From Sedimentisphaerales bacterium (GTDB taxonomy: Bacteria > Planctomycetota > Phycisphaerae > Sedimentisphaerales > SM23-30), in the NCBI GenBank assembly GCA_963666285.1, contig OY762711.1: a stretch of 64,000 nucleotides of DNA; one strand, 5' to 3'. The position numbers and the translations under genes are program-made. Within the stretch, counting starts at the first letter, position 1; each line of letters starts with the position of its first letter. The notes beneath the pieces are model-generated. The model saw only the letters and a program-made list of their open reading frames with translations, searched no databases and had not been told where the DNA came from. Positions 21,891-46,140 of the stretch are shown one piece after another.

Positions 21891-23813
21891 TTATTTCAAA
21901 AATCTAGTATTACCCGAGCGGCGTGTGACACCGATTTTGTCCATATAATCAAGTATCGGCAAGGCATATTTGCGAGTTGTATCGAGCAGATATTTCATCT
22001 TAACGCTTTCGAGCCTACCCTGCCCTTCCCCGTTGACATGATCGATAATTCTGCGTTTGGCCTCTTCAATTGCTTCACTATGGAAATAAACCTTCCGTTC
22101 AACCTCAATAATTATTTTCTGCTCGGTGAGAATAGCAATGGTTTTATCATATTCACTTTGAGATGCATTAACCATGCTGCGGATGTCATCCGGATTTGGC
22201 GGAGAGAACAGGTTGTCTTTATAGACAGCTTCAACTTTATCCAGTAAAGCCTGCTGGGCCGGGTCATACTGTTCCTGGTGAGACGTCAGGGCAAACAGTT
22301 GATTTTTCAATAGCAGTTTACCTTCACTAATAGCAAGTTTTACAACTGCATCAAAAAGCGTTTTCTCCAGATCGCTCTGCTGCAGCAGAAGATCACGCTC
22401 CATGCCCAGTCGATCAGGCATTTGTTTGTGAAAGACCTCTAGTTTGCCATAAATATACTCAAGAACATCGTTATACACCTGAGCATGAAGATATTGTTCG
22501 TTAGCAACCTGGATAACAGTATTGCTTTCGACAAACCTGGCCAGAATATTCTTTACAGAATCGGGTTCCAGCTTGGTCCGCAATGCGATCTGCCTGATTG
22601 ACAAAACAGACCATGGATCATCTTTCAGGCAATATTCGATAAAAGACCTATTCTCGCATACTGCATTTGCCCAGCATTTTATTGCATCGATTGAAGATAT
22701 CCTGCTGCGTTTTAGTTTTTTCGGCAGTGGTTCTATGACAGTACCACCACCAACGGTCTGGACCGGACCGGTAGAACGCAAGATAAACCTGTCATTGGGA
22801 CCGGCAACTATTGGCTGATCAGCTAATAGCTGTACAAATACTTCCTGACCGGCAAGAGCGACAGTGTCTTCTAAAAGATATATCTTGGCGGTTACCTCAC
22901 TGGTACCTGTGTGAAACTTCATACGTTTGCCATGTTTGACAACAAGACCATCCAAATTAAGAATCTTTAGAGAACATAAAAACCACTCAGAAGGTTCAAA
23001 ATATTCACCTTTTGTAAGTACATTACCACGCTCGATATCGTTGAAATCCAGCTGCGGCAGGTTTAAGGCGGCACACTGGCCGGAACGGACAGTATCATCA
23101 TCACGACCATAGACCTGGATAGCCTTGATACGGCTTTTTGTGCCTTTTGGCAAAAGAGTAACCTCATCGCCAACTCTGGCAGAACCACTTACAGGGATGC
23201 CGCTAATAACATTACCAAAGCCTTTAACCGAGAAGAATTTTTCAACCGGCTGGCGAAATACGCCTTCTGTGCTTTTGGGCTCAATACTCTTTATCAGGGA
23301 TTTGAGAGAATCATAAAAGAAATCAAAGCCATCGCCCGTGATATTTGACATCGGGCAGATATCTGCACCCGCCAGAAAGGTATCTTTGAGATAATCTTTG
23401 AGTTCGGATATCACCTGCTCAACTCTTTCCGGAGAGACAATATCGGTTTTGGTAAGAGCTACCATGCCATGTTTGACACCAAGCAGGGTAAGAATATTGA
23501 GATGTTCCCGCGTCTGGGGCATTATACTATCATCAGCAGCAACAACAAAGATAACACCATCAATACCGGAAGCTCCGGCTACCATGGTCTTAATAAAATT
23601 TTCATGGCCGGGAACATCCACTATACCAACTTCAAGATCGCCTAGCCGACAAGGGGCAAAGCCAAGCTCTATGCTCATACCGCGTTCTTTTTCCTGCTTG
23701 AGCCGGTCGGTTTCGCAACCGGTAAGAAGCCTGATAAGTGCAGTTTTGCCGTGGTCAATATGACCGGCAGTACCTAGCGTTATATTTATTTGAGATGCCT
23801 GTTTATCGTTCAT
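21891..23813 (-). CDS. selB: Selenocysteine-specific elongation factor
   Basis: GTAGHIDHGKT, DRLKQEKERGMSIELGF, DVPGHENF, C-terminal winged helix TTRKYALPILDYMD. Confidence 0.98.
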   Translation of the reverse strand: MNDKQASQINITLGTAGHIDHGKTALIRLLTGCETDRLKQEKERGMSIELGFAPCRLGDLEVGIVDVPGHENFIKTMVAGASGIDGVIFVVAADDSIMPQTREHLNILTLLGVKHGMVALTKTDIVSPERVEQVISELKDYLKDTFLAGADICPMSNITGDGFDFFYDSLKSLIKSIEPKSTEGVFRQPVEKFFSVKGFGNVISGIPVSGSARVGDEVTLLPKGTKSRIKAIQVYGRDDDTVRSGQCAALNLPQLDFNDIERGNVLTKGEYFEPSEWFLCSLKILNLDGLVVKHGKRMKFHTGTSEVTAKIYLLEDTVALAGQEVFVQLLADQPIVAGPNDRFILRSTGPVQTVGGGTVIEPLPKKLKRSRISSIDAIKCWANAVCENRSFIEYCLKDDPWSVLSIRQIALRTKLEPDSVKNILARFVESNTVIQVANEQYLHAQVYNDVLEYIYGKLEVFHKQMPDRLGMERDLLLQQSDLEKTLFDAVVKLAISEGKLLLKNQLFALTSHQEQYDPAQQALLDKVEAVYKDNLFSPPNPDDIRSMVNASQSEYDKTIAILTEQKIIIEVERKVYFHSEAIEEAKRRIIDHVNGEGQGRLESVKMKYLLDTTRKYALPILDYMDKIGVTRRSGNTRFLK

Positions 23814-23823
23814 TCTTATTGTT

Positions 23824-25224
23824 TTAACCCAAAATTTCAGTTAAAGCTTCAACTACTATCTTTGCATCCCCCTCCAGCAAAGACCTGGGATCCAGCAGTA
23901 TTTTATCTTCCTGGATACGGGTAAATATCGGAGTACTATAATGCCTGAGTCTGTTTGCAATTATAACACTACTAATCTTATTACTAAATATTGTCACTAA
24001 CCTGGTTTTGAGGTTCTGAGTCGGAAGAGAGCCGCTACCTGTTTGAGAAAATCCATCGACGCTCTCAATTTCAGCATCTAACTTTGCCTTACGCAGTTTT
24101 GATGCAATTTTTGCCGCTTCGCTTTTGATAGAATCGTACGACCGCAGCATCATCCGCAAGGTTGGAACCTGCTGTAGTGCCTTTTCTTCATTCATAAACA
24201 ACCTCAAAGTTGCTTCCAGGGCAGCAAGAGTCATTTTATCTACTCTAACTATGCGGGCAAACTGGTTCTTTTTGACCTTTTTAACCAGATCAGCCCTGCC
24301 GAGAATAATCCCGGCCTGGGAAGCACCGATAAGCTTGTCACCACTGGAACAGAGAATATCGGCACCATCGGCAATAGATTCGGCAAGAGTTGGCTCTTTG
24401 GCAAAACCATATTTTGAGAAATCAACCAGCGAACCTGCACCAACATCATCAAAAGCAATAAGGCCATTGGCATGAGCCAGATCAACAATCGGTTTAAGCG
24501 GTACTTCACTGCTGAATCCCTGGATTTTGTAATTGCTCGGATGAACTCGCAGAATAGCGGCGGTTTCTTCTGAAATAGCATTTTCATAATCACGCAAATG
24601 GGTTTTATTGGTAGTACCAACTTCGACCAGTTTTGCCCCGCTGAACGCCATTACATCCGGCAATCTGAAAGAACCGCCAATTTCGACAAGCTGACCGCGT
24701 GAAACTATAACCTCTTTGCCCTCGGCGATGGTATTTAATACCAGTGCAGTTGCTGCGGCATTGTTATTTACAATCGTAGCCGCTTCGGCACCGGTAAGAA
24801 TAGAAAACATCTTTTCTATATGGTTGTCGCGACTACTGCGTTTTCCATCTTCGATACCAAGCTGCAGCAGTGAATAGCCGCTGAGTTCGCTTTTTATCTG
24901 ATCTACAGCCGCGTCAGGCAATACCGCCCTGCCAAGCCCGGTATGAAGTACTATCCCGGCAGCATTAATAACCTTGCGATAGAAAGGACTTACCAGTGAA
25001 CCAAGTTCAGATTGAATATCGCCTACAACAGCATCTCTAATATCAAGCACATCCTTTGAGCAGCTGCCGGCTAATATCTCCTTGCGTTTTTCTTCAATAA
25101 CAGAACGACAAACCTTCGTTAATATTGCCTGAGAAAACGATTCCTTGTAAGAATCCGGCAATAGCTGACAGACAGAATCCACCGAAGGTATCTGCCTTAA
25201 CATTTCCTGCTGAGAAGCATCCAT
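23824..25224 (-). CDS. selA: L-seryl-tRNA(Sec) selenium transferase
   Basis: VINAAGIVLHTGLGRA, VSRGQLVEIGGSFRLP, VEVGTTNKT, SGDKL PLP lysine. Confidence 0.98.
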   Translation of the reverse strand: MDASQQEMLRQIPSVDSVCQLLPDSYKESFSQAILTKVCRSVIEEKRKEILAGSCSKDVLDIRDAVVGDIQSELGSLVSPFYRKVINAAGIVLHTGLGRAVLPDAAVDQIKSELSGYSLLQLGIEDGKRSSRDNHIEKMFSILTGAEAATIVNNNAAATALVLNTIAEGKEVIVSRGQLVEIGGSFRLPDVMAFSGAKLVEVGTTNKTHLRDYENAISEETAAILRVHPSNYKIQGFSSEVPLKPIVDLAHANGLIAFDDVGAGSLVDFSKYGFAKEPTLAESIADGADILCSSGDKLIGASQAGIILGRADLVKKVKKNQFARIVRVDKMTLAALEATLRLFMNEEKALQQVPTLRMMLRSYDSIKSEAAKIASKLRKAKLDAEIESVDGFSQTGSGSLPTQNLKTRLVTIFSNKISSVIIANRLRHYSTPIFTRIQEDKILLDPRSLLEGDAKIVVEALTEILG

Positions 25225-25248: not shown

Positions 25249-25785
25249 TTATTTGATTTCAACCCATTCTTCTTTCTTTTCAACTTTGAACGGGCCTAGA
25301 TCAGCATCTAAAACAACTTTTACTTTGCCGCTGAAATTATTAGGAGCTCGCCACGAACTCCGGCATGTGCCGCCTCAGCCAAAGGTAAAATCGCCAGAAC
25401 CGAGCAGTTTTTCCTGTTCATCATAAATCTTATATGATGGAGCATTCTGCATACTACCATTTCTTTCTGCTGCAGGTAAATAGGTTTCGCCGGCATTTCC
25501 CTCTAAAACAGCCCCCAGGTATAAAGTTCGACCGCTGACGGTAACATCTGCCCTGGCAACCAGCGGCTCACCAGGTTTTGAATCATTTTTCCAAGGGGAA
25601 GTTGATATTGAAAGCTCCCATATATTGCCCTGATCATCTTTTACAGATAGCCCAGAGTCTGAGATAACTTTAGCTGACGGATTCATAAACATAAAAAAGA
25701 GGAAAAGACCAATAATTACAAAACCAACAATAAAAATGCCTTTAGGCCCGGATTTATTCATTTCTTCAAAACTTTTTTCTGTCAT
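25249..25785 (-). CDS. Predicted selenoprotein A (178 aa, U137), single TM plus GUGGxC domain
   Basis: ORF-track stop TGA 25375-25377 reads through as FTFG-U-GGTCRSSWRAP... to TAA 25249-25251, just upstream of selA; hairpin loop at +22. Confidence 0.85.
25343..25361 (-). promoter_or_regulatory. Putative bacterial SECIS upper hairpin
   Basis: GGAGTTCG-TGG-CGAGCTCC, loop starts 22 nt after the UGA. Confidence 0.8.
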
Positions 25786-26052
25786 AGAACTCTCCAGTGT
25801 TAATTTGACGCAAAACAATACTAAATATCAAAACGACAAGGCTATACTATAACTAATAAATGCACTAATTTGTATCAAAAACCTTGAAAAATGATTTCAT
25901 CTGTTATAAATCTGCTTATATTCTCATAAGAAAAGTAGTAATATAAATTTAATTAGTCAAACCACACAACCAAACTACCATAACATCCTATATTAACAAA
26001 GGTTACAGTTTAACAACCTTTTAAGTGCCTTTGTTTTATATACCGAAATATC

Positions 26053-26081
26053 TTGCAATTATTTTGGGATTATGGCATGAT
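26053..26081 (+). promoter_or_regulatory. Candidate sigma70 promoter for the ABC-selD-selC operon
   Basis: TTGCAA-17 nt-CATGAT with an extended -10 TG. Confidence 0.4.
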
Positions 26082-26133
26082 ATATGAAGTTATTGTCTCG
26101 GCATATTAGAAATTGCTTTTTACAGGAAATTGA

Positions 26134-26271
26134 ATGAACAGCTATCAATATATACGATTAATGCACTCCGGAAAACAGGAGTATGGCTGAGTTGTTTCCT
26201 GTCGATACTCGTGTCGAGTGTCAGAAAGCAATTCTATCTTTAAATGTTTCATACAGCTTCATTTTATTTAA
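26134..26271 (+). CDS. Candidate Sec-codon leader peptide (45 aa, U19)
   Basis: AGGA then ATG 26134; MNSYQYIRLMHSGKQEYG-U-VVSCRYSCRVS...*; TGA 26188-26190; GATACTCG-TGT-CGAGTGTC hairpin with loop at +22. Confidence 0.6.
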
Positions 26272-26325
26272 TAGAATCGTTAATGACACCAATAATATTG
26301 GTCAAAACCAAATAAAGAGCATATC

Positions 26326-26354
26326 GGCAGACTGGAATTTATCGTCTGCCTTTT
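26326..26354 (+). terminator. Intrinsic-terminator-like hairpin in the operon leader
   Basis: GGCAGAC-11 nt-GTCTGCC followed by TTTT, about 35 nt before the SBP start codon. Confidence 0.55.
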
Positions 26355-26389
26355 CTATTTTAAATGGGAACATTGCCGAAAGGGAAAAT

Positions 26390-27520
26390 ATGAAAAATCT
26401 TCTACTTGCACTAATCGTTATAACAGCAGCGATAACCGGCTGCGAAAAAAAGGAAACCACATCCAGCGATAATACCACAAATCAAACACCATCAAAAGCA
26501 GTAACATTAAAAGTTGGGCATGTCGGCCACGACCACCACCTGGCATTGTATATGGCATGTGATTACGCTGATGAACTAAGTATAAATGGCGTCAGACTGG
26601 AGAAAGTTGAGGACATGAAATATTATACACTCTATAAAAACGAGACCAAACTTGCAGACGTGGAAATTGTAAAAGTTGGCGGCGGAGCCAAGATGCCTAC
26701 CGCACTGGCACAGGATGTCATAGATATTGGATTTGGCGGAGTTGCACCGGTTATTGCAGCAGTTGATAAAAACGCACCTGTAAAATTAATCAGCCCACTA
26801 CACTCCAAGGGTGATATGTTTGTGATGAAAACCGACTCCGAGGTAAACAATTGGGACGATTTTATTAAAATGGCAAAAGAAACCAAAACACCTATCAGAA
26901 TAGGATACAAAAGTCCATCAGCAGTCGCCAAGTTAATCTTTGAAGATGCTCTAAGTAATGCAGGGATCTCTTTTGGACAGGACCCTGCCCAGACCGATAT
27001 TAATGTGTTAATGGTTAATACCAAAGGCGGCGGCAAACTGAATGTTGCCCTGGAAAGCAATATTATTGATGGTTATGCAGGAAATAACCCATTCCCTGCT
27101 ATTGCCGTTAATAAGAAAATGGGAAAAGTAATTGCCGACCTGGAAGACCTTCCGCCTGGAAACTTCAAGAACCATCCATGCTGCTGCATTGCAGCTAACG
27201 ATAAGGCCCTGGCGGAAAAAACTGAAGCTATCGAGGCAATGCTGACACTATTCAAAAAGGCAACCGATTTAATCAACAACGACCTGAATAAATCAGTTGC
27301 AGCTGCGACGCACTGGATTGGTACATCTGAAGAAGTCGAAAAGATGAGTATTCCGACCAGCGGATACAGTATGCAGGTCACTGAGGATTGGCAGGCGACC
27401 ATGGATAAATGGTTCGAGGCTATGAAGGCTCTTGACACCTATCAAGGTGAACTAAAGGACATACCTGCTAAACAGGCCTGTGATAAAGTATACGATATGT
27501 CAATTTTGAAAAAGATATAA
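26390..27520 (+). CDS. ABC transporter substrate-binding lipoprotein (SsuA/TauA/NMT1-like)
   Basis: Lipobox ITGC; GHVGHDHHLAL and HPCCC motifs; upstream of permease and ATPase. Confidence 0.88.
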   Translation: MKNLLLALIVITAAITGCEKKETTSSDNTTNQTPSKAVTLKVGHVGHDHHLALYMACDYADELSINGVRLEKVEDMKYYTLYKNETKLADVEIVKVGGGAKMPTALAQDVIDIGFGGVAPVIAAVDKNAPVKLISPLHSKGDMFVMKTDSEVNNWDDFIKMAKETKTPIRIGYKSPSAVAKLIFEDALSNAGISFGQDPAQTDINVLMVNTKGGGKLNVALESNIIDGYAGNNPFPAIAVNKKMGKVIADLEDLPPGNFKNHPCCCIAANDKALAEKTEAIEAMLTLFKKATDLINNDLNKSVAAATHWIGTSEEVEKMSIPTSGYSMQVTEDWQATMDKWFEAMKALDTYQGELKDIPAKQACDKVYDMSILKKI

Positions 27521-27533
27521 ACAGCTATAAATA

Positions 27534-28373
27534 ATGAACAATCCAAAGATAAGAAAATCAAATATCATCGGCTGGCTGATTATGCCAATAGTGCTGCTGG
27601 GAATATGGCAATTACTAGCGGTTAAACTTAACCAGCCATGGCTGATACCTGCACCGGTAAAGATAATAGAACAGTTGACCCACCCACTGCGAATTCATTT
27701 TTCGTCCGGGTCACTTTTTAGCAATACAATTATCAGCCTTCTGAGAGTATTTATCGGTTTTGCGCTAGCAGCTATTATCGGAGTTTCAGCAGGATTACTG
27801 CTGGGTTCGATCCGGCCGCTTAGACAATGGTTTGAACCAACAATAGAGATTATCAGGCCGTTATGCCCAATTGCCTGGCTGCCGTTTGCGATTGCGGTAT
27901 TCAAACTGAACACTCTGCCTAATCTTTTTGGTATCAGGTTTACTCATACCATACTGGACCAGGTACAGCTGGGTATGATATTTGTAATTTTTATCGGCGG
28001 ATTCTTTCCGATCTTCACTAACACTATGGATGGAGTAATAGGAGTGAGAAAGAATTTTGTCAGGCTGGCCCAGACACTTGGCGCAACCAGAGTCCAGGTA
28101 TTCCTGCAAATATATCTACCTTCTGCTATGCCTCAAATTCTTACCGGATTGCGACAGGGACTCGGCTTGTGCTGGTTTGTTATTATTGCAGCCGAAATGA
28201 TGGTTGGCTCTGATACAGGCATAGGCTATTTACTGATGTATGCCGCAGATAACTCGGCAATGGATATCGTGATATCATGCATGATTATCATAGGTGTGAT
28301 CGGCGCTGTAATGAGTACTGCTATGCGTATACTGATACACAAAAAGGTTGCATGGAAAGGAAAAGAGTTTTAA
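27534..28373 (+). CDS. ABC permease (SsuC/TauC-like)
   Basis: SLLRVFIGF, RPLCPIAW, EAA-like loop AQTLGA, IIAAEM. Confidence 0.92.
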   Translation: MNNPKIRKSNIIGWLIMPIVLLGIWQLLAVKLNQPWLIPAPVKIIEQLTHPLRIHFSSGSLFSNTIISLLRVFIGFALAAIIGVSAGLLLGSIRPLRQWFEPTIEIIRPLCPIAWLPFAIAVFKLNTLPNLFGIRFTHTILDQVQLGMIFVIFIGGFFPIFTNTMDGVIGVRKNFVRLAQTLGATRVQVFLQIYLPSAMPQILTGLRQGLGLCWFVIIAAEMMVGSDTGIGYLLMYAADNSAMDIVISCMIIIGVIGAVMSTAMRILIHKKVAWKGKEF

Positions 28374-29149
28374 TGCAAACAGAACTACAACATCCTAATA
28401 CATGCACAAGTGTTATACCTCTAATCAGTTTTACAGGTATCAGTAAAGCATTCACCTCCGATTCCGGCCGAATAGTACAGGCTTTGACAGATGTATCATT
28501 TTCGGTGCGACCTGGTGAATTTATTACAATTGTTGGTGCAACCGGTTCCGGTAAAACCACTTTACTGAACCTGATAGCCCGTCTGGAACATTCAGATGCA
28601 GGAATAATAGAATACAACAACTCACTGGATATAAAAAATGAAATATCTTATGTATTCCAGCATTATACCCTGCTGCCCTGGTTAAACATTCAGAAAAACA
28701 TCTCTTTGGGACTGAAGCTGCGTAAAATACCTCAAAAACAACGAATTAAAACCGCATGCAGGTTAATGAAAGATACCGGGCTAAAAGGTTTTGAGCGGGC
28801 GTACCCACATGAGCTTTCCGGTGGAATGAGACAGCGTGCCGCAATTGCCCAGGCCCTGGCAACAGAACCAAAACTACTGCTTATGGACGAACCATTCGGG
28901 TCACTTGATGATGGCACACGAAGCGACTTACAGCAGATGTTAATAAATATCCACCAGCAAAGCAAAACTACTATTCTATTTGTTACTCATAACATTGACG
29001 AAGCAATATTGCTGGCTGACAGGATAATTGTTTTAAGCAAATCGCCTGGAAATATATTAGAAGATATTGAAATTAACCTGGCAAAACCAAGAAACAGAAA
29101 CAATAACGATTTTACTAAACTTTTTTTGCAGATACGGAATTTATTATGA
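28373..29149 (+). CDS. ABC ATP-binding protein (SsuB/TauB-like)
   Basis: GATGSGKT, LSGGMRQR, LLMDEPF, FVTHNIDEA; start overlaps the permease stop. Confidence 0.93.
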   Translation: MQTELQHPNTCTSVIPLISFTGISKAFTSDSGRIVQALTDVSFSVRPGEFITIVGATGSGKTTLLNLIARLEHSDAGIIEYNNSLDIKNEISYVFQHYTLLPWLNIQKNISLGLKLRKIPQKQRIKTACRLMKDTGLKGFERAYPHELSGGMRQRAAIAQALATEPKLLLMDEPFGSLDDGTRSDLQQMLINIHQQSKTTILFVTHNIDEAILLADRIIVLSKSPGNILEDIEINLAKPRNRNNNDFTKLFLQIRNLL

Positions 29150-30777
29150 CAATTAATAAAGAAAGACGTAAACGCGTAATGCAGCGTTCTATCAAACTGG
29201 GACATTGTGTATGCGACCCTAAACAACCCTGTCCTTGTGAGATATTCAAGGAAAAAAACATATGCTTATGTGCAGGTGAGAGACTGGAGGAACCAACTGG
29301 AGAAGTTCGCTTAACCCAAATGGTGGAAAAGGCAGGATGCGGCTCCAAAATTGACCAGGCTTTCCTCAAGGAAGTGCTTGGCGATTTGAAAATGCCGGAA
29401 GACACTAACGTTCTAGTTGGCGTACCTGCCGGTGATGATGCCGGGGTATACGATATGGGCAATGGAACCTGCCTGGTTCAAACAGTTGATGTATTTACCC
29501 CAACTGTTGATGATCCATATATGTTCGGCCAGATTGCAGCAGCAAATTCTGTTAGTGATGTATATGCTATGGGCGGCATACCCAAAACCGCCCTTTCGAT
29601 AATCGGCTTTCCGGTACGCAAAGTCCCTGATAGAGTAATGAAAGAGATCATCCGAGGTGGAATTGATAAAATGGCAGAAGCCGGTGTGTCTATTATTGGC
29701 GGACATAGTATCAACGACCCGGAAATAAAAGCAGGCTATGCAGTAACTGGAACAATAGATAAAGAAAAAGTAATTACTAATGATGGCATAAAGGTTGACG
29801 ATGTATTCATCCTTACTAAAGCATTAGGGACAGGAATAATCTCATTTGCATCTCAAATAGGACGAGCGTCTAAAAGTGCAATGGAAGCTGCCGCAAAGTC
29901 AATGGCAACCCTGAATAAAACAGCATGCGAGTTAATGGTGAAATACAATGCCCATGCCGCCAGTGATGTTACCGGCTTTAGCTTGATAGGCCATTTATCA
30001 GAAATGACAAGACGTAGCGGGGTAGATGTCGAGATAACCTGGGATAAGCTGCCCTGGCTGCCGGAGGCACTTGATTATGCCGCTCAAGGAATATATCCCG
30101 GGGCAATCGAACGAAACAAGGAATCATGTGGTCATACCATTATTGTCGATGATAATGTGAGCGAAGCAATGGCTGATATCTGTTTTGACGCTCAGACTTC
30201 CGGCGGCATGCTAATTGCAGCAGCACCAGATAAAGCTGAAAAACTATTAGGTGAACTGAAAGCATCTGGACTGGAATATGCTGCCATCATTGGTAGGACC
30301 ATTTCAAGAGGCTCAGGAAAAATTAACATTGTAACGGACCGGACAAAATCATTTACAGCTTCTAATGCCGCTCAAAACATACAGGAAACTTCAGAACCTG
30401 ACCCGGAGCCATGTTGCGGGACAGGAGCAGCATCTGCAATAAAAGCACAAACAGCTAATGCAGAAAGCTGTTGTTGCGGTCCAGAACCGGATGGGCAAGA
30501 TAACAATAATGAACCAATCAAAGCTATCGAAACCAGTTTTTCCAGCTTTATGAGTAAGGTAAACAGACCCGGCGGACTTGACGCATTCACCAAGCAAGCG
30601 GTGAACCTGGCATTGTCTATCCATTCGAAATGTAAACCTTGTCTCAAAACACATATTGCAAAAGCACGTAAAATGGGCTATACTGAATCTGAGATTGACG
30701 AAGCAGCATGGATGGCAATCGCTTTTGGCGGTTCACCGGCCATGATGTTTTATAAAGAAGTGAAAGCAGAGGTATAA
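29146..30777 (+). CDS. selD: Selenophosphate synthetase with N-terminal Cys-rich extension and C-terminal AhpD/CMD-like domain
   Basis: AGCGSKI, GDDAGVY, QTVDVFTP, AAANSVSDVYAMGG, GGHS, DVTGFSL, DAQTSGG; C-terminal CKPC...EIDEA. Confidence 0.95.
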   Translation: MTINKERRKRVMQRSIKLGHCVCDPKQPCPCEIFKEKNICLCAGERLEEPTGEVRLTQMVEKAGCGSKIDQAFLKEVLGDLKMPEDTNVLVGVPAGDDAGVYDMGNGTCLVQTVDVFTPTVDDPYMFGQIAAANSVSDVYAMGGIPKTALSIIGFPVRKVPDRVMKEIIRGGIDKMAEAGVSIIGGHSINDPEIKAGYAVTGTIDKEKVITNDGIKVDDVFILTKALGTGIISFASQIGRASKSAMEAAAKSMATLNKTACELMVKYNAHAASDVTGFSLIGHLSEMTRRSGVDVEITWDKLPWLPEALDYAAQGIYPGAIERNKESCGHTIIVDDNVSEAMADICFDAQTSGGMLIAAAPDKAEKLLGELKASGLEYAAIIGRTISRGSGKINIVTDRTKSFTASNAAQNIQETSEPDPEPCCGTGAASAIKAQTANAESCCCGPEPDGQDNNNEPIKAIETSFSSFMSKVNRPGGLDAFTKQAVNLALSIHSKCKPCLKTHIAKARKMGYTESEIDEAAWMAIAFGGSPAMMFYKEVKAEV

Positions 30778-30793: not shown

Positions 30794-30890
30794 GGAGGTG
30801 ACAGGTAACTGGTGTTGCTCCTGGTCTTCAAAACCAGTGTGGGGCGGTAAGCCCGTCCCGGGTGGGTTCGATTCCCATTCGCCTCCGCCA
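30794..30890 (+). tRNA. selC: tRNA-Sec (anticodon UCA)
   Basis: 8-bp acceptor stem GGAGGTGA/TCGCCTCC, anticodon arm CTGGT-CTTCAAA-ACCAG, long variable arm, GGTTCGATTCC, 3' GCCA. Confidence 0.97.
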
Positions 30891-31014: not shown

Positions 31015-32400
31015 ATGGCTAAAAAAACTGGCAAAAAAGCAAACTATATCATCTTTGGAAACCAAGAAGTTAAAACTGTTTTCGATGGAAAAGAAATTGG
31101 AGTAAGCCTTGATAGAACCACTCAATCTCACTATACAATGCTTCCGCAAAAATCAGGAAGAACCAAACGAAAATGGTTAGGAAAGCATACAGGTAAAGCC
31201 GTTGCAAGTTTCTGGGCTTTAGTAGAAGAGCTCAATAACAAACAAACACCTACAACAACCATAATCGCTCAACAAGAAGACATATCCCCCCTGTATGAAC
31301 CAACGGATAAAATGTCTATGGATGAAGTTGTCAGGTCCAATCAAATTAAGTTAAGAAAGACTGGCAAAGTAATACTTACAACAAAGGAGTCAGAGCATAT
31401 ACAATGGCTATTCAAGGAACTCCAAAATCCCAAGGAATTGGCTCGTAAAACTGGCATCGAAGAGTTTACAGAGTTTGGAAAACTATTAGCCAAAGATACC
31501 AACATACCTCTTAAAGACCTTCTTAAAAACTATCTTAATAAAAAGAAAACCGTTTCAAAAACAACCAGACAACAAAGCAAAACATTTTTTAATAATTTCA
31601 TTAAAGCTATTGACTGCAAGTATGTCGATGAAATCACCCTGAAAGACATACACAACTATGAAGACTATATATACTCAAAAGGATTAGCCGCGAAAAGCAT
31701 CATTAACCAAATATGCACTATATCTACTATCATAAATTACAACACAGGAAGATATCACTGCCCTCATCTATTACAAGTGCATAGTTGGCTCCAGAAAGGA
31801 ATAGACAAACCTACGGAAGATAAACTTTACAATCCAAAATTGATTTCAGTTGTTGATTTTATGGCTTTATACGAAGTGGCTCCATTCAAATGGAAGCTGT
31901 TTCTATTACTTGGTCTGAATTGTGCAATGTATCCAATTGACATTTCCAACTTTCAACTAAAACACCTCAATATCGAAGATGGAACGGTTGCATTTAGACG
32001 GGGTAAAACAGGTAAAGTATTAGCCGTTTCTACCTTATGGACAATTACAAAAAAACTTTTAAAACAATACCTGAAAGACAAAAAAGATAAAAGCCCGTAT
32101 GTATTTATTTCAAGACTTGGAATACCACATAGCCCCAAAGGTATAACTACTGCATTTGACAAGACTATTAGAAAAAACGCCAAAGTTTCAAAGGATGTTA
32201 AGTTCAACCACCTACGAGACACATTTGCTACTTTGGCACAAGATGCAGGCTTTTCTATCGAACAAATCAACCTCGTGTTAGGACACAAAAACAAAGGAAT
32301 GAACGACCGATACGCTGCTCGCCAAGCAAAACAACTAACAAGTAAAATATGCAATTCAGTAGAAGATGAGTTCTTTTCTTCAAACAAAATAAAAAAATAA
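31015..32400 (+). CDS. Tyrosine recombinase/integrase
   Basis: KFNHLRDTFAT (HxxR), LGH, DRY catalytic Tyr; next to the att site. Confidence 0.9.
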   Translation: MAKKTGKKANYIIFGNQEVKTVFDGKEIGVSLDRTTQSHYTMLPQKSGRTKRKWLGKHTGKAVASFWALVEELNNKQTPTTTIIAQQEDISPLYEPTDKMSMDEVVRSNQIKLRKTGKVILTTKESEHIQWLFKELQNPKELARKTGIEEFTEFGKLLAKDTNIPLKDLLKNYLNKKKTVSKTTRQQSKTFFNNFIKAIDCKYVDEITLKDIHNYEDYIYSKGLAAKSIINQICTISTIINYNTGRYHCPHLLQVHSWLQKGIDKPTEDKLYNPKLISVVDFMALYEVAPFKWKLFLLLGLNCAMYPIDISNFQLKHLNIEDGTVAFRRGKTGKVLAVSTLWTITKKLLKQYLKDKKDKSPYVFISRLGIPHSPKGITTAFDKTIRKNAKVSKDVKFNHLRDTFATLAQDAGFSIEQINLVLGHKNKGMNDRYAARQAKQLTSKICNSVEDEFFSSNKIKK

Positions 32401-35906: not shown

Positions 35907-36500
35907 TTAGGCAGATAGTTGCTTGGTCTGTTTCAGGGCAGTATAGACGGTCTGCCTGGAGCAATTCAAGTGACGGGCTATGCCACTGACTGACATACCT
36001 TGGCTCTTGAGGGATATAATCTCATCATAATTGTATTGTGGCACAGAGCCACCAAGTAGGACACCTTTTTGCCTTGCCCTTTGAAGACCACGGACGATGT
36101 TCTCCCTGATATTCTGCCGTTCCATTTCGGCAATACCTAATAAGAGGCTCATTATCATCCTGCCCACTGCCCCTGACAGGTCAAAGTTTTGGGCAATAGC
36201 AATGACCCTGATGTCCTGTTCGAGCCAATCGACCAACAGGTTGATACCGTCCTTGAGACTACGGGACAAACGGTCCAATTTCCATACGACTACAGTATCG
36301 ACCCTGCCCCTGAATATATCATTTTGAAGTTTTTTCAATGATGGACGGTCGAGATTACTACCTGTCTGCCTGTCTTCATAGACCTTGTAATTGGTTATGC
36401 CGTGGTTACGGCAATACTCAAGAATAGAAGCCTCCTGACTGTCCAAACCTGAACCTTGTTTTAGTGTGCTGACCCTGACATATATGGCTGTATATTTCAT
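35907..36500 (-). CDS. Small serine recombinase (resolvase/invertase)
   Basis: YVRVST, DRPSL, VWKLDRLSRS, C-terminal HTH. Confidence 0.95.
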   Translation of the reverse strand: MKYTAIYVRVSTLKQGSGLDSQEASILEYCRNHGITNYKVYEDRQTGSNLDRPSLKKLQNDIFRGRVDTVVVWKLDRLSRSLKDGINLLVDWLEQDIRVIAIAQNFDLSGAVGRMIMSLLLGIAEMERQNIRENIVRGLQRARQKGVLLGGSVPQYNYDEIISLKSQGMSVSGIARHLNCSRQTVYTALKQTKQLSA

Positions 36501-36772
36501 TCAGTTGGCTCCTTCCTGCCTGATGACTCTATGCAATATTCTATGTGGCTCTGAATTATACTTGGCATCTGATACCAATTTATAACTTGTTCATTATTGA
36601 ATGAGCCTTGTTCAAAGTCGGCATCATCAATGCCGAAATACTGTCCCCAATGACTGAAACCATTTGGACAGTCAGGATTGCTACTCAATAATAAACAGGT
36701 TCCATCATAGAAATAAATGGTATATCTATCTTGAACATTATTTTTTGATTTGGTTATTGCTCTGATAATCAT
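36497..36772 (-). CDS. Hypothetical protein
   Basis: 91-aa ORF overlapping the resolvase start. Confidence 0.6.
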   Translation of the reverse strand: MIIRAITKSKNNVQDRYTIYFYDGTCLLLSSNPDCPNGFSHWGQYFGIDDADFEQGSFNNEQVINWYQMPSIIQSHIEYCIESSGRKEPTE

Positions 36773-39605: not shown

Positions 39606-39869
39606 ATGAACAAGAAATTAAGACAAATAATAACTTCAATCCTGCTTGTTATTGGTCTGGCATTGCTGGTATATGGACAATTTGTAAAATCCTATACCGT
39701 TCTTAGTAAAGAAGGCGATGCGACTTCTGCCGATCCTGAAACAATGATAGTCAAGGATGTCACCATCCATGGTGTTGACCGTAACGCGGAAGGCGAGTTA
39801 TTTAGAACTTACTCGACTAAGGAAGGAGCAGCTCCGCCCCCGGATGACTGCCCTACCTGAGGCAGCTAA
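39606..39869 (+). CDS. Small membrane protein, probable C-terminal CxxU selenoprotein (…DDCPT-U-GS*)
   Basis: TGC CCT ACC TGA GGC AGC TAA; N-terminal TM; sits in the sel locus. Confidence 0.65.
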
Positions 39870-39881
39870 CAGGAGGCTGTG

Positions 39882-40709
39882 GTGTCCATGGCTAAAGAAA
39901 GCAAGCTACACAACTTTGCTCTAAAACTTATCCCTCACCGACTTTGGGTCCAAACAGCATTTCTGCTGGTCTGGCTCGACCCGCTGGCATTGCGTATGCA
40001 CACAGCCTGTGCACCTGTGTTCCATTGTTATGCATGTCCGCTGGCAACTTTTGCCTGCCCGGTTGGCGTTATTGCACAATTTACCGCATTACACCTTTTC
40101 CCTTTCCTTGCTATAGGTCTGATACTTAGCCTGGGCGCCTTGCTCGGCTCGATTATCTGCGGATGGATGTGCCCGTTTGGTTTACTGCAGGATCTGGCGG
40201 CAAAAATTCCAATACCACGTTTCAAAATCCCGCAATGGATGGGCTATGGTCGATATATCGTATTGCTGGGTACAGTCATTCTTATCCCTTATATATGGGG
40301 AAGCGAACATAGTCTTTTTATATGTAGAGTATGCCCAATCGGAGCAATAGAAGGTGCAGGTCCTGATATTGTAACAGCTGCTGCAAATGGTTCAGAAATT
40401 GTATGGCCAAACGCCTTAAAGATGACAATTACAATCGTAGTAGTAGTCGCCATGTTTGTTTCGATAAGGCCCTGGTGCCGCGTATTATGCCCGTTGGGAG
40501 CAATATTTGGATTTATGAATCGATTCTCACTGTTCTCAATGAACCTGAAAGAGTCAAACTGCACTCAATGCGGCCACTGTCATACACTATGCACCTACGG
40601 TGTTGAGCCGGAAAAAGACTCCAACAGCGACAATTGCATACGATGTCTGGAATGTACCAAATGCAAGCCGGGAGCTCTTCAATCAGGTCACATTTTTGAG
40701 AAAGAATAG
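39882..40709 (+). CDS. Membrane 4Fe-4S binding protein (NapH/MauN/Fer4_5-like)
   Basis: CYACPLATFACP, CGWMCPFG, CRVCP, WCRVLCP, two ferredoxin-type CxxCxxC motifs. Confidence 0.9.
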   Translation: MSMAKESKLHNFALKLIPHRLWVQTAFLLVWLDPLALRMHTACAPVFHCYACPLATFACPVGVIAQFTALHLFPFLAIGLILSLGALLGSIICGWMCPFGLLQDLAAKIPIPRFKIPQWMGYGRYIVLLGTVILIPYIWGSEHSLFICRVCPIGAIEGAGPDIVTAAANGSEIVWPNALKMTITIVVVVAMFVSIRPWCRVLCPLGAIFGFMNRFSLFSMNLKESNCTQCGHCHTLCTYGVEPEKDSNSDNCIRCLECTKCKPGALQSGHIFEKE

Positions 40710-40714
40710 ATCTC

Positions 40715-41836
40715 TTACCCTGTTGATTCTTCTGAGATTTGACTAATTGTGTCTAATACTGCTTCAGAATTGAGATTATCAGAATATCTAAACAATTCCA
40801 TGAACCTACAGTTCCAGAACTTGTTATTTATCAAAAATATCACAAACGGCAAACATAAAACAAAACAGGCAAAACCAAATATTAGTGCCATAAGCAATAC
40901 CTGCCAGATATAATCATCAATTTGCTGACTATTAGCCATTGCCTGTATAACAAATGCGGAAACGACAAATATTCCGGAAATTAAAATCATATTAACAAAT
41001 GTCAAGATGACGAACTTTATTGGCCTGAAACGCCTGCGACACATCCACCTGGTAACTATTATTCCCGACAAAACAACTCCGAATGCAATTAAGTAGACAA
41101 TAAATAGCTCTGCTTCCATGTCCCCGAAGCTCATTATTTCAAGTACGCCGAATGCGATAAATATAATAACAGTCAGGATAAAAACCAAAAAGCGATGCAC
41201 TTTTGCCAGCTTCTCAGACAATAGCCAACAGAAAACAAAACTGATAACTGTTGAGTTAACAATAATGTCAAAATATGTTCCAGATTGGCCAAGAGATACT
41301 ATTTTCAGGTATATCCACCATATCGCCAGCGCTATAACCATTGGCATAAGCAGCCATAAAGCTTTTCCTGTACGGTTTTCCTTGAGCAATATAAATCCAA
41401 CTGCAATAATCAACCACTTTACCATCCCAAGCAAAGCACTAAACGGACTGATATACACCTCAACCGGCCGGCCTTTAACTGGTCCCCAATCACCAATATT
41501 GTTACTTACCACAATTTGAATATTACCAAAAACATACCCAGGTATTCGCCACGAATACGAACTTAAGCCTCCTCAACCATACTCAAATTTACCGGTACCT
41601 AATTTTAAATTCCCTTTATATATTTCAAACGTTGGCTTCTGCCCTCTTTCAAACAGCCCTGAATTTTCATGAGCTTTTCCTAAGGTATCAAGAAGTTTAT
41701 ATTCCAGGGTAATATAACAGCCATTAATTCCAACCTCAACTGTATTATCCAAAGGCTTGCCAGGACTATCATCCGCAAGTAAACCAAAATTGATAGAAGA
41801 AATAAACAGAATAATAAATATAAATATTTTTTTCAT
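40715..41836 (-). CDS. Predicted selenoprotein B (373 aa, U88): signal peptide, GUGG domain, multi-TM membrane domain
   Basis: ORFs 41573-41848 and 40715-41512 are one frame interrupted only by TGA 41573-41575: FEYG-U-GGLSSYSWRIP; hairpin loop at +22. Confidence 0.85.
41542..41558 (-). promoter_or_regulatory. Putative SECIS upper hairpin
   Basis: GTATTCG-TGG-CGAATAC. Confidence 0.8.
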
Positions 41837-41858
41837 AATCAAACACACATAAATTAAT

Positions 41859-43184
41859 TTATTTCAATTGATCTTCCAACTCGTCAATCGTAAAACCTTC
41901 TGCAGTAACCTTCAATTCAGAATCTGCTAATATCAGCCATGGTAAGCCTTTCAAACCAAGTTTGAATTTAGCATCATCCAGCTCTTTATTCAAAATGCAA
42001 GATTCAAATGGAACAGAATTATCTGATAACCATTTATCAATTTCCTCCTGGTCAATTTGTCCGTTATGTACCAGCACAGTATGAATACCCTTTGTTTCAA
42101 GTATTTCTTTTTTACCTGCCAGCTGTTTAATAAAATAACGGCTTGGTCTCTGTTGTATATCCCAGAAAAAGAGCAAAACAGGCTTGCCTGCTTCCAGGTT
42201 GGTTATGCCGTATTTAGTCATATCAGGCAAATTCTTACCGAGCAAAGAAGAAGGCTGTCTAGGCACAAAGCCTCCGTAAGACGGTTGTTCACTAACTACA
42301 AGAACAACATCCTCGGCACCACCTTCAGTTTCTATGTGGTTGTATAAATGCCTGCCATTACTTTGATAGTTAGCCTGAATATTCGCCCTGCCTGAACAAA
42401 CAGCTTCAAAAGTAAATTTCCCTTCTTCATCTGTTTGTTTGCCTTCATTTGGCTGGCCGCTGCCGTAGAGATAAACATTAACATTAGATATGCCTTTTCC
42501 ATCTTCGTCAACAACCTGACCGGATATTTTCATATCAGCAATACGTAAAATAGTATTATCCAGCTGAATAACCCTGCCTATTATACCTGGATCTGCCTCA
42601 CAGCTTATGTTGCCTGAACCATATCCTTTGACACTACTAATATTAATACTGTACCTATGAGATTCCGGTAAACATGATACAGCAAACTCACCGTTGGCAT
42701 CTGATTTGATTTTTGACTCGGTACGTTCAAAGCTGCACCCCCAACTATTGGACATAAGTGACAATGAAACTCTCGCACCTTCAAGTGGTTCGCTTTTTTC
42801 GTTAACAACTTTACCTTTTACAGAAAATCCTTTTGCCAGTGTGATGTCTGCAACTTTACTATCTACTGTAATTGAAGTTGAACCTGCCAGATTGTTACCA
42901 ATATCTCTGGCAATAACATACATCTCATCTTGCACCCAGCTATAATTACTGGGCTTCCAGTTTATTATATATTTACCATCTGCATCCGTTGTCACACTTC
43001 CCGGCACATAATAGTTCGGCATAAGATAAACAGCTGCTCCTTCAACCGGGCTGCCATCGGCATCTCTAACTATTCCAATTAGTTGAGAAGGAGCATTACG
43101 CTGCATTTCTCTGACCATTGGAGTCGCCTGATCAGCCAGTTCCATCCCTAACGACGATAACAAGATTAAAAATAACCTTAACAT
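41859..43184 (-). CDS. Secreted protein with carboxypeptidase-regulatory-like repeats and a Cys-less thioredoxin-like C-terminal domain
   Basis: Three G.V.D..G.P..GA.V...TD..G repeats; GKPVLLFFWDIQQRPS and KGLPWLIL. Confidence 0.8.
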   Translation of the reverse strand: MLRLFLILLSSLGMELADQATPMVREMQRNAPSQLIGIVRDADGSPVEGAAVYLMPNYYVPGSVTTDADGKYIINWKPSNYSWVQDEMYVIARDIGNNLAGSTSITVDSKVADITLAKGFSVKGKVVNEKSEPLEGARVSLSLMSNSWGCSFERTESKIKSDANGEFAVSCLPESHRYSINISSVKGYGSGNISCEADPGIIGRVIQLDNTILRIADMKISGQVVDEDGKGISNVNVYLYGSGQPNEGKQTDEEGKFTFEAVCSGRANIQANYQSNGRHLYNHIETEGGAEDVVLVVSEQPSYGGFVPRQPSSLLGKNLPDMTKYGITNLEAGKPVLLFFWDIQQRPSRYFIKQLAGKKEILETKGIHTVLVHNGQIDQEEIDKWLSDNSVPFESCILNKELDDAKFKLGLKGLPWLILADSELKVTAEGFTIDELEDQLK

Positions 43185-43245: not shown

Positions 43246-46140
43246 TTATTTCTTTTTACGTGTTGAAGAAACAACCGCAACAACAACCATAACTACAAAT
43301 ATAACTATTACAGCACTCAAGTTGAACTTCCTCTCCTGCCCGGCTTCGGGTTGAGATTCTGACTGTTCAGCCTGAATCGCTTCTTCGGCGGCCTCTTCGG
43401 CTACTTCTTGCACAGATTCGCCTTCTTCAACAAAACTTACATTCTCCAGCTTAACTTCATCCTGTTCAGCTGCGACAATCTTATTTTCCTTGAAAAGCGA
43501 TTCAACTTGTTCGGCACTTAAGGCATAGCCAAAAATATAAGCTTCATCGATAAGTCCCTTAAAGTTCCTCATTGTACGGCTATGATCAATTTTACCAAGA
43601 ACGAAATGTACCGGATCATCAAATTGCTTTTCGACATTATTAACAAAGCCTGCCAGCTGGCCATCAATATACAGATAATTACAACTACCGGAATTAACTA
43701 TAACTATATGGTGCCAGTTATTATCTGTATAGATTCCATTACCATTAATTGAATTACCACCTTCGTTACCAAAAGGTTTTCTATGAAGATATCTAATCCG
43801 ATCTTTGTAGATTTCCAGCAAAATACCGTGATTACCATGGCCGGTTGCTGCAACTATATCCATCGCTTCATCTGTACCACCATTCTTAATCCATACAGAA
43901 ATCGAATAATCTTTCGATATAGTTAACGGATCAGTAATATCAACATAATCATCCTTACCATCAAGCTGCAACGCTCCGCCAAACCGGCCTTTACCAGGAA
44001 GCCATTCAGGCTCCCCATTAAGAGTTCCATTAAACGAATTATTTTGATCTAACGCTACCGAACCACTCACTTCATCAAGAGACCAATGAGCAAGCTGGTC
44101 GCCTTTCGTCTCAAATGACCATACCGGGCCAACTGTTGTTTTTCCGGATTGGCTTACTTCATCAACACACCAGAAATAGATGGCATTAGGAATAAGTCCG
44201 CTGAAAGTCAGTTCAGGTTTCCCTTTAATGCTGCCTAGCAGCTCCATATTCTGTTTTGTATTGCCAAAATATATTTTATGTATAACTGAATCTTCACCTG
44301 CAGTCCATAATACCTTCATTTTTCGCTGAGAAGCGACATTTGCCCCATCCCAAGGCTCCGGATTACAGGCATTTGCCCCAAGCTCTTTATAAAATCGAAC
44401 TTCACTAATCCCTATTTGACCACTCTTATGCCAACTGGATGGATTATCAAAACGAACTTTTTGAGCGTCTACTGGATCTAACTTAACTACAACGGGCGAA
44501 TCATAATCGAAAGTACCCTCAGCCTTGTCAAATACAATATCCTGCTTAACAGATTTCCAACCTTCTTTTTCAGTCCACACGGAAACATCAGCCTTTGCAA
44601 TACCATAATCGACATAACCTGGCTTATTATAATTCCAGACGACTATAGAAGTAAGTTTCTGTGGTTCAGTAAAATCAAAAACAATACCTTCACTATATCT
44701 TTCGACATTTGACAGCCACATAGCTTCAGTGTCAGTATTATGCTCTATCAGATTATCTTGATCTACATCCAGAAGACCGCTGCCATCAATTACAGCATTC
44801 ATCCCTTTAGCTACAACGCCGGTAACCATCTCGCCATATACAGTTCTTTTACGGTTTTCAGGTTTTAATGTATAAATTTTTCCCCTTATATCAAAAGGAG
44901 AATCAATAACAGCTTCAGCAATAAATGGTCGTGCAACATTCTTAGGCTCTCGCCACGAGAGCGAACAAGTGCCACCTCAACCATATTCCAGACTAAAAGT
45001 CTGGTCATAGGTCCGATCCCTGTTGTATATCCTGACCTTTGGAGCATCAGGTCTGCTGCCCGATTTTGTCAAGCTTACAGACTCTCCATTATTACCTGAT
45101 AATTGGTGTCTGAAGTAATAACTACCATTTCCATAACTCACCGATAGGTTTGAAAATACATTTTCGCCTACATTCGATTTGGCAACAGCTCCCCGGCTAA
45201 TCTCAAATTCGTTGCTATTGGAATACCAGGTGGCTCCCATCTCCCAGTTTTTACCGGAATCATCTTTTGCTGTTTTCTGCCAGGAACGAACTCGATATTT
45301 ACCAACAGGTAAACTGATTTGGCCATCTTTTATATTGTCTCGTTTGAACAAACCATTCTGGCCGCAGCATACGATTGAATCGACATTAACCGGTACTTCC
45401 AGCTTACTGTATGCAACGTCATCTGCCGAAGTCAATTCGACAAATGCTCCGTCTTTTGAAACTTGCAGGTTATATAGTTTATTTTCATATTCAATATAAT
45501 TACCAACAAAAGTTTCATGCTTGGTTATGACATCACCTATAATTATTCTGTCACTGTCAAATGTTTCAGAAATATCATTAAATGTGCCATTCAGATTATA
45601 GTCAACTAGCGTAATTTTTGTTTTAACACCAGCTATATCAACAGTCCCTTCATACCAGCACCCAATCTGGGCATACAAACGCTCGTAATCTGCTCTGTAG
45701 GAATAATAATAAAAATTAATATGATATGTAACGATCCCATCATCTGTATCAAACAGCACAGGAATTCCGTTGAAGTTTACACGGTATTCATCTCTACGCT
45801 CACCCTGATATTTTTCATTTTCAGAAATAGAGCCGTCCCCATTAGAATCAAAATACATTAGATCGTATTTGCCATATTTCTTCTGACGATCCAGTATTAT
45901 CTGCCTTGATTTCTTCCCGGCCATCTCATGCTTCCAAACGGCATACCTTACATCATCTGTATTTAGTTTTGGTACTGTCATTTCTGACGGTTTTTCCTTT
46001 GAAAGCTCGATATTTTTTGTGTTCCCACCTATGATTTCTCTGGCCGTATCGGAACTGCAATATCGCAACCATTGAGGTGCAGAAAAAACTGTCGCAGTAA
46101 TTGAAAAAATAACCAATAAAAATAATGCCTTGATTTTCAC
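43246..46140 (-). CDS. Predicted selenoprotein C (964 aa, U388): signal peptide, N-domain, GUGGxC domain, discoidin-like, LamG-like, C-terminal TM anchor
   Basis: ORFs 44977-46140 and 43246-44829 are joined in frame by TGA 44977-44979 plus 49 open codons: LEYG-U-GGTCSLSWREP; hairpin loop at +22. Confidence 0.87.
44946..44962 (-). promoter_or_regulatory. Putative SECIS upper hairpin
   Basis: GCTCTCG-TGG-CGAGAGC perfect stem. Confidence 0.82.

Follow-up and report, generated by a model that had tools for sequence, protein, structure and literature searches.

A putative selenium-responsive transcription attenuator of Planctomycetota with an antisense-to-SECIS antiterminator and a leader related to a selenoprotein gene

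Gene neighborhood and leader of the selenium-supply operon

The analyzed window, i.e. the whole 64,000-nt stretch of contig OY762711.1 (GenBank assembly GCA_963666285.1) from a Sedimentisphaerales bacterium, contains a plus-strand operon in which the genes of an ABC transporter are followed by selD and selC. The first gene of the operon encodes an NMT1-like substrate-binding lipoprotein (SBP; 26390–27520), related to SsuA and SaoX at scores below the cut-offs, and is followed by a permease (27534–28373) with the SaoP family as its best, also sub-threshold, match, an ATPase recognized by profile match (28373–29152), selD (29146–30777) and the tRNA-Sec gene selC (30794–30890, tRNA call). The selD product scored above its NCBIfam cut-off and combines a Cys-type active site with an N-terminal Cys-rich extension and a C-terminal CMD/AhpD domain; the active-site Cys was present in all 36 motif matches across the loci, which fits an enzyme required when selenium is short. 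Divergent from the operon leader, on the minus strand, are a full-length gene of a selenoprotein family (25249–25818; UGA at 25377–25375), selA (23824–25224) and selB (21891–23813). In most of the related loci a gene for an outer-membrane barrel (Phenol_MetA_deg) was located 5′ of the SBP gene. The Sao ABC transporter, including SaoX and SaoP, belongs to selenium-associated clusters (NCBIfam; see also 10.1101/2022.07.06.499078), and these families were the best or second-best matches for the permease and the SBP of the window; however, the scores (45.5 of 300 and 141.8 of 295 bits) were far below the NCBIfam cut-offs and the permease gene had no UGA.

The region 5′ of the SBP gene carries a short leader ORF (uORF; 26134–26271) of 45 codons with a single in-frame UGA at codon 19 (26188–26190), the putative selenocysteine/stop sensor codon. 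Its ATG, located 18 codons 5′ of the TGA, is preceded at 6 nt by a ribosome-binding region with an AGGA core (26122–26129), and the encoded peptide includes the stretch QEYG-U-VVSCRYSCR. The UGA is followed by a SECIS-type hairpin (26204–26222) of segments 1 and 2, with 8 bp and a 3-nt loop (26212–26214) at +22. Segment 1 (26199–26210), which covers +9 to +20 relative to the UGA, contributes the SECIS 5′ arm with its 3′ part and has an alternative partner further downstream, segment 3. The uORF, the TGA and the hairpin with its loop at +22 had been described in the first-pass annotation, and all of these coordinates were confirmed in the sequence, together with the near-complementarity of 26107–26119 to 26225–26236, listed there as an imperfect pairing. 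Its statement that the TGA-to-hairpin spacing is the same as in the family genes also held: a loose scan turned up six full-length genes in this genome with the cassette G-U-x3-4-(C/S)-x2-SWR, and in all six the TCG core follows at 21 nt, i.e. the leader hairpin is positioned at the organism's own selenoprotein-gene distance. In a pool of 92 elements this distance was mostly 21 nt (87 elements), the other five having 24 nt, and the SECIS stem pairs were retained in 90–92 of the 92. Neither the leader ORF nor its parent selenoprotein family produced a Pfam or NCBIfam match.

The leader region of the window folded better than its shuffled versions (z −3.15, with 1 of 100 shuffles equally good). 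A candidate leader promoter (26053–26081), consisting of a −35-like box at 26053–26058 and an extended −10-like box at 26073–26081, was recognized by eye; it is weak, agreeing with the consensus at 8 of 12 positions, and a simple promoter scan did not call it, giving three promoter-like matches against 4.0 expected. The ribosome-binding region is complementary to positions 26195–26202 just after the UGA, as had been noticed earlier, and the respective helix (0:1) is predicted in the untranslated RNA of the window, but it was not conserved in 14 other short leaders, where the best duplexes ranged from −5.0 to −13.8 kcal/mol at scattered positions. These leaders ruled it out as a conserved element and it was retained as a window-specific modifier.

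Terminator, antisense segment and their conservation

An intrinsic terminator is predicted at 26326–26361, with the 7-bp stem GGCAGAC/GTCTGCC (26326–26332/26344–26350) and T4 (26351–26354) already recorded at first pass, an 11-nt loop and further Ts extending to 26361. It is modest (−10.3 kcal/mol), and a simple terminator scan of the window called none; the terminators of the homologues had stronger stems and T6–T9. Segment 3, or anti-SECIS (26317–26330), can pair with segment 1 by 9 bp, a 2-nt bulge and 3 bp, and it overlaps five of the seven bases of the terminator 5′ arm. The SECIS together with the terminator on one side and the anti-SECIS helix on the other are, from their predicted pairings, mutually exclusive folds, and in the antiterminator fold the freed SECIS 3′ arm (26218–26223) is predicted to pair with segment 2′ (26284–26289). 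The anti-SECIS helix of the window (−14.2 kcal/mol; equalled by 8 of 5000 random genomic 23-mers) is among the weakest of all copies.

The first-pass annotation had overlooked this antisense segment and proposed as the alternative to the terminator a pairing of 26324–26329 with 26374–26379. The 6-bp complementarity does exist, but it cannot act before termination because the U-tract precedes its 3′ half, which is still untranscribed at the moment of decision; in the homologous leaders read by eye it did not stand out either, and it was ruled out as an antiterminator. What stood of the earlier attenuator reading is the UGA/SECIS/terminator leader ahead of ABC-selD-selC, which is conserved; what did not is the antiterminator, since the conserved competitor of the predicted terminator is the SECIS 5′ arm itself.

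A search for the SBP found it in 41 of the 401 genomes of the order and in 74 metagenome loci, and the records with an orthologous SBP were labelled Sedimentisphaerales, Anaerohalosphaeraceae or Planctomycetota; both the SBP and the cassette were absent from the three same-genus genomes searched. Counting loci with at least 230 nt 5′ of the first operon gene and dropping identical duplicates, 47 distinct loci had a UGA-SECIS cassette 200–325 nt before the first operon gene. A terminator was called 131–170 nt after the UGA in 44 of them and was visible by eye in the other three. Another 18 rows fell outside the cassette regex and were read by eye. One of these was a regex miss with all elements present (L117), two were cut at a contig edge, yet with a visible anti-SECIS and terminator (L062, L140), and in three another gene of the same operon precedes (L052, L100, L107). 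One had a terminator and no upstream cassette in the 420 nt available (L090), one had a degenerate cassette and no terminator (L093), and the remaining ten were more distant SBP homologues in other contexts. The conservation of the UGA, hairpin and terminator in relatives, which had been suggested as a check, was thus found ahead of the operon in other genera and families, and therefore the leader is not simply a decayed paralogue.

The reverse approach, a search with a terminator-only pattern, found 68 places in 66 of the 401 genomes, compared to two matches of a reversed-pattern control; the divergent terminators of the present genome did not match this pattern. Three of the places (L065, L073, L074) were already among the 47 loci. 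The other 65 were re-examined, and 60 had a UGA-SECIS 145–164 nt upstream by regex. Inspection added three more, two missed by the regex at contig edges (L184, L167) and one with a compensated SECIS variant (L218), to give 63 of 65; the last two (L213, L214) were chance terminator matches in coding DNA. In a phylum-wide sample the cassette pattern occurred in 7 of 401 genomes, three of them outside the class. Two of these loci (L221, L222) had an anti-SECIS-like segment and a terminator before genes for a corrinoid protein and MtaA-like methyltransferases, and a third (L220) leads directly into the next gene, a terminator being absent. The UGA-SECIS, the putative anti-SECIS overlapping the terminator base and the selenium-supply genes are kept together across an order of the Planctomycetota and beyond.

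Throughout this set the anti-SECIS was a near-perfect antisense of the SECIS 5′ arm, often also of the loop, that overlaps the terminator base, with a consensus of up to 16–18 bp. The best duplex of segment 1 with the region 90–200 nt downstream had a median of −27.4 kcal/mol in the 47 operon-proximal cassettes (weakest −14.9) versus −13.3 kcal/mol in 49 further matches, drawn from these loci and the present genome, a comparison whose significance is overstated by the kinship of the loci. All but two of these 49 controls were paralogues with the same SECIS; the two that were not family cassettes included the strongest control (−24.6 kcal/mol), and the next-strongest (L085, −23.1 kcal/mol) proved to be a second complete element. 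The full-length family gene divergent from the window's leader had no anti-SECIS (−11.6 kcal/mol). Seven consecutive anti-SECIS pairs were retained in 91–92 of the 92 pooled elements, 45 of which had been collected by a pattern that fixes segment 3. At one column the window and L014 have A-U in place of G-C or G-U, and the exchange affects the SECIS stem as well as the anti-SECIS helix. When nine hand-picked diverse elements were aligned with plain MAFFT, pairing held in 75 of 81 cells and two of the nine anti-SECIS pairs changed on both sides, which are few events; 9 of 500 shuffles reached the score, and slid registers gave 29–49%. A 6-of-6 partner for the freed SECIS 3′ arm, located close to the leader's end, was present in 74 of the 92 operon-proximal elements versus 14 of the 49 other cassettes.

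Origin of the leader and the genes behind the element

Among the 46 rows of the SBP tree with a cassette, the leader was a full-length family gene with the UGA 38–46 codons before the stop in 25 and short in 12. On this tree, which is a quick tree only, the short leaders needed 11 changes, with at least five forced by well-supported branches; by such a count the full-length selenoprotein gene appears to have been reduced to a short uORF on several occasions. Short leaders homologous to that of the window were found in L014, L049, L231, L238, L239 and others. They had in-frame starts 12–20 codons before the UGA and, by eye, an SD-like or TATAAT-like box 5–7 nt before the start; in L014 and L049 the second Cys or the downstream frame was lost. 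Some of the short forms, e.g. in L065, may be frameshifts or assembly errors. The leader ORF of the window is best regarded as a relic of the C-terminus of the selenoprotein family, i.e. a derived minimal form, in which, judging from the aligned leaders, it is the RNA and not the peptide that is conserved. In the parent family, 99 of 153 homologous proteins end just before the UGA position, and a homologue search with the divergent family gene (25249–25818) returned four truncated proteins. Among UGA-free homologues the selenocysteine position was occupied by C in only 4 of the 45 aligned rows running through it, with no sign of a conserved Cys.

A second copy of the element exists in the genome of the window (C1:379222); in it, one extra nucleotide behind the UGA scrambles the peptide, which ends after 11 more codons. 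The copy has a compensated 14-bp anti-SECIS helix, with which 2 of 5000 random 23-mers paired equally well, and a T7 terminator, and it heads genes for a methyltransferase, three HGD-D/double-cubane proteins and an activase; the same cluster stands behind the element in many genomes. Elsewhere selD directly follows the element (L179, L182), or corrinoid and MtaA-like methyltransferases stand behind it (L229), and further variants with other compensations occurred in L236, L237, L238 and L239. In one genome (G063) the ABC genes belong to a longer operon, at the head of which a short leader was found together with its anti-SECIS and terminator, an arrangement predicted beforehand; two tandem paralogues just upstream of this leader lacked an anti-SECIS and a terminator. 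The element heads varied gene sets: the ABC transporter, a Cys-type selD, the methyltransferase/double-cubane reductase cluster or corrinoid methyltransferases. In Methanococcus, corrinoid methyltransferase loci and transporters were reported to be induced by selenium starvation (PMC11097638, partial text). The regulated genes fit selenium scavenging, because they include a Cys-type selD and corrinoid/MtaA-like methyltransferases as in starved Methanococcus.

Proposed attenuation mechanism and its alternatives

In the amino-acid operon attenuators, such as E. coli trpL, hisL and pheL, transcription is attenuated by the ribosome translating the leader. A general outline of such attenuation is given in PMC3892789 (partial text), according to which attenuators responding to a rare amino acid had been built by engineering but, as of 2013, had not been reported in nature. 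The element of the window shares with the trp type an upstream ORF that has a start site (ATG with AGGA) and a codon for the sensed amino acid, an intrinsic terminator ahead of the first structural gene, albeit weak in the window, an antiterminator (the anti-SECIS helix) exclusive of this terminator, and downstream supply genes for the sensed amino acid. The trp-type attenuators are on when aminoacyl-tRNA is short, and the same sign is predicted here. Unlike in the trp type, there is no run of sensor codons but one UGA only, a codon that also means stop and whose reading requires both SelB and a SECIS. Further differences are that this SECIS takes part as one of the rival folds, that approximately 120–150 nt separate segments 1 and 3, and that the leader of most genomes encodes a full-length protein instead of a dedicated peptide.

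Bacterial SECIS hairpins carry a G in the apical loop. They direct a SelB-dependent recoding of UGA (PMC8124441, partial text). The hairpin of the window resembles them in being short, in following the UGA immediately on its 3′ side, in its apical-loop G and in sharing the geometry of the full-length genes, but differs from an ordinary bacterial SECIS in that it would double as half of a conformational switch. In 2002, Thanbichler and Boeck reportedly described an element resembling a SECIS in the 5′ UTR of E. coli selAB. In that case the element adjoins the SD and represses translation (10.64898/2026.03.03.709296, partial text). Common to both would be a SECIS-type hairpin as a sensor of SelB-GTP-Sec-tRNA with a negative feedback on sel genes. 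In contrast to the selAB operator, however, the SECIS of the window does not adjoin the SD of the regulated gene, ending 167 nt before the SBP start, and there is an in-frame UGA in a leader ORF, an antisense segment and a terminator approximately 105–145 nt downstream; moreover, the controlled genes are transport/selD/selC, with selAB being divergent. In Treponema primitia, selenium lack shortens the transcript of fdhF-Sec, i.e. the selenoprotein's own, with imprecise ends (PMC3892789, partial text). In both cases transcription past a UGA-SECIS would depend on selenium via translation coupling, but the element of the window has a dedicated terminator and antiterminator, the opposite predicted sign and other genes under control. 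Bacterial selenium sensing and the adjustment of selenium uptake are poorly described, and the E. coli selAB operator and the polarity in T. primitia were the direct cases found. Five loci compared with Rfam gave no match above the gathering threshold, a term search of a 2026 review of the prokaryotic selenoproteome (PMC13188914) found 'attenuat', 'leader' and 'riboswitch' absent, and the literature searched, consisting mostly of open papers, contained no description of the element, which motif tables in supplements could hold. The present case adds the antisense-to-SECIS antiterminator, together with controls, and the derivation of the leader from a gene for a full-length selenoprotein.

It is highly probable, from the comparative evidence, that a SECIS-gated terminator of some kind is real, conserved and regulatory. 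The reading which we consider likely is a translation-coupled transcription attenuator that senses the supply of selenocysteyl-tRNA and is off with selenium. With selenium being short there would be no Sec-tRNA, and the ribosome would stall or be released at the UGA; the downstream RNA would stay naked, segment 1 would capture the terminator base and the polymerase would read into the transporter, selD and selC. With sufficient selenium, SelB-GTP-Sec-tRNA would clamp the SECIS and the ribosome, reading through the UGA, would sweep segments 1, 2 and 2′, so that the terminator forms and the operon is off; uptake and activation of selenium would thus be under negative feedback. In most of the relatives the full-length selenoprotein gene would serve as the leader. 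In a broader version, which we hold with moderate confidence, an ordinary selenoprotein gene doubles as a leader, its own recoding reporting the selenium status and its SECIS being a switch arm, the short leaders have been stripped down repeatedly, and the element marks a selenium-starvation regulon of predicted scavengers (an ABC importer with an outer-membrane barrel, the methyltransferase/double-cubane cluster and corrinoid methyltransferases). If true, this would extend attenuation to the 21st amino acid, add a switch arm to the functions of a SECIS and an attenuator leader to those of a protein-coding gene, point to a selenium-scavenging role for several uncharacterized gene families and provide selenoprotein engineering with a compact genetic Sec-tRNA sensor. 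The element, of approximately 220 nt, would represent a complete and mutable mechanism testable by a few point changes.

The likely reading was modelled by folding the transcript up to the terminator loop in 44 loci. In these models, the anti-SECIS helix pairs ahead of synthesis of the terminator 3′ arm if the RNA is ribosome-free or if a ribosome waits at the UGA; closing the SECIS, or advancing the ribosome by one codon, removes this helix. The antiterminator probability exceeded 0.5 in 42 of the 44 loci with free RNA, in 44 with a ribosome covering to +6, in 39 with coverage to +9 and in 18 with coverage to +12; with the SECIS forced it did so in only eight, i.e. in these eight the helix was not abolished. 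A ribosome with the UGA in the A site reaches approximately +9 in toeprint data. In the window the naked RNA, in which the 5′ leader traps segment 1 in a helix, gave a predicted antitermination of 0.00–0.16. With the ribosome edge at +6 to +9 it was 0.96–1.00 (30 nt of 5′ context) or 0.69–0.72 (100 nt), and with the edge at +12 it was 0.02–0.07; as modelled, the naked, halted and one-codon-on states would resemble the three states of trp. The prediction for the window depends on the assumed footprint, because an edge at +6 to +9 is needed. In L222 the predicted antitermination was at most 0.13. In equilibrium folding with the complete terminator present, the terminator probability was 1.00 in the window in all modes, and the terminator was favored in the free state in 5 of the 7 loci listed; a switch would therefore have to be kinetic, since equilibrium with the complete terminator favors termination.

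The same RNA switch might be set by SelB-GTP-Sec-tRNA acting on the SECIS alone, as a protein-gated terminator with incidental leader translation, and this would make it a transcriptional analogue of the E. coli selAB leader (10.64898/2026.03.03.709296, partial text). It would agree with the removal of the antiterminator by a forced SECIS in 36 of the 44 loci without any ribosome, with an anti-SECIS spanning the apical loop in many loci, with the free degeneracy of the peptide and with TTG as the only candidate start in the C1:379222 copy. We nevertheless regard it as rather unlikely, since no element with a SECIS and an anti-SECIS was without a UGA, either among the 18 regex-negative rows read by eye or in the terminator-first set, the short leaders have retained in-frame starts and the naked RNA of the window is predicted not to antiterminate. 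An opposite polarity, with selenium turning the operon on as for T. primitia fdhF, because a halted ribosome would hide segment 1, is very improbable: the antiterminator is lost with a footprint to +12 in 26 of the 44 loci, and full-length transcription in T. primitia is selenium-dependent (PMC3892789, partial text), but the naked RNA after release at the UGA forms the modelled antiterminator in 42 of the 44, the SECIS-bound state is compatible with the terminator and not with the antiterminator, and the downstream genes are supply genes including a selenium-independent SelD.

It is very unlikely that control is exerted mainly on the translation of the first gene, by pairing of the terminator arm with 26374–26379 near the SBP ribosome-binding site. 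This pairing, of 6 bp, appears in the MFE structure of the window, where the U-tract is short; in the homologues, however, it was not seen by eye, the U-tracts are long, and 40–143 nt of variable sequence separate the terminator from the estimated start of the first gene. There is equally little probability that the translation-coupled attenuator preferred here is instead a decayed paralogue of the selenoprotein family next to an ordinary terminator, with no regulation, even though the leader is clearly family-derived and its peptide degenerate, possible frameshifts or assembly errors occur among the short forms (e.g. L065) and the three same-genus genomes searched have neither SBP nor cassette. 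A plain terminator does not need an antisense to the SECIS, and the paralogues elsewhere lack it; furthermore, compensated changes were present in two degenerate copies of one genome, and the element stays at the operon head whichever gene is first.

Leader copies at other loci

The second copy of the leader in the genome of this organism (G000:C1:379222-379395; L226, L228:4444-9709) was frameshifted, with both the anti-SECIS and the terminator intact. The genes downstream of it code for a methyltransferase, three double-cubane/HGD-D proteins and an activase, and represent a candidate selenium-salvage pathway. Outside the Phycisphaerae, at L229:5286-8082 and L221, the genes behind the element coded for a corrinoid protein plus a pair of MtaA/CmuA-like methyltransferases; selA/selB were located divergently. 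This gene set resembles the methyl-selenium demethylation loci of Methanococcus.

In four leader loci (L049, L231, L238 and L239) a TATAAT-like box was located 5–7 nt upstream of the leader ATG, its position suggesting that their uORF mRNAs are leaderless.

The parent selenoprotein family and its cassette

Three members of the unnamed parent family are encoded in the window, all on the minus strand (25249-25818, 40715-41887 and 43246-46140), each with a C-terminal or internal domain that by eye looked Ig-like and bears the G-U-GG-x-C/S motif. Most of the retrieved database proteins of this family (99 out of 153) ended immediately ahead of the UGA, and the UGA-free homologues had no conserved Cys at this position. 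At L082:2905-3429 and L117:1925-2449 the family gene terminated at the TGA, where no SECIS was recognisable, and a short leader copy was present close downstream; the protein may have split off from its own regulatory cassette. Degenerate UGA-SECIS cassettes lacking both anti-SECIS and terminator were found within the operon ahead of DUF3034/methyltransferase genes (L082:8232-8393 and L090:4591-4752), and are possibly relics or translational variants.

selD, the island and a candidate selenoprotein

The window SelD (29146-30777) combines an N-terminal Cys-rich extension (GHCVCDP..PCPC...CLCAG), kept in relatives, with a C-terminal CMD/AhpD domain. The stretch with an integrase-like gene immediately 3' of selC (31015-32400) and, beyond it, a resolvase-like gene (35907-36578), both annotated by eye, is an inserted island that separates selC from the gene of an 87-aa membrane-anchored protein with the C-terminus CPT-U-GS (39606-39869, plus strand). 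In L006, L007, L008 and L011 the latter gene directly follows selD. The protein had no match in Pfam/NCBIfam and is a candidate unlisted selenoprotein, kept, including its TGA, in four further loci. Behind the stop codon of this gene lies a hairpin that overlaps with the start of the next one, which encodes a 4Fe-4S membrane protein (39879-40709).
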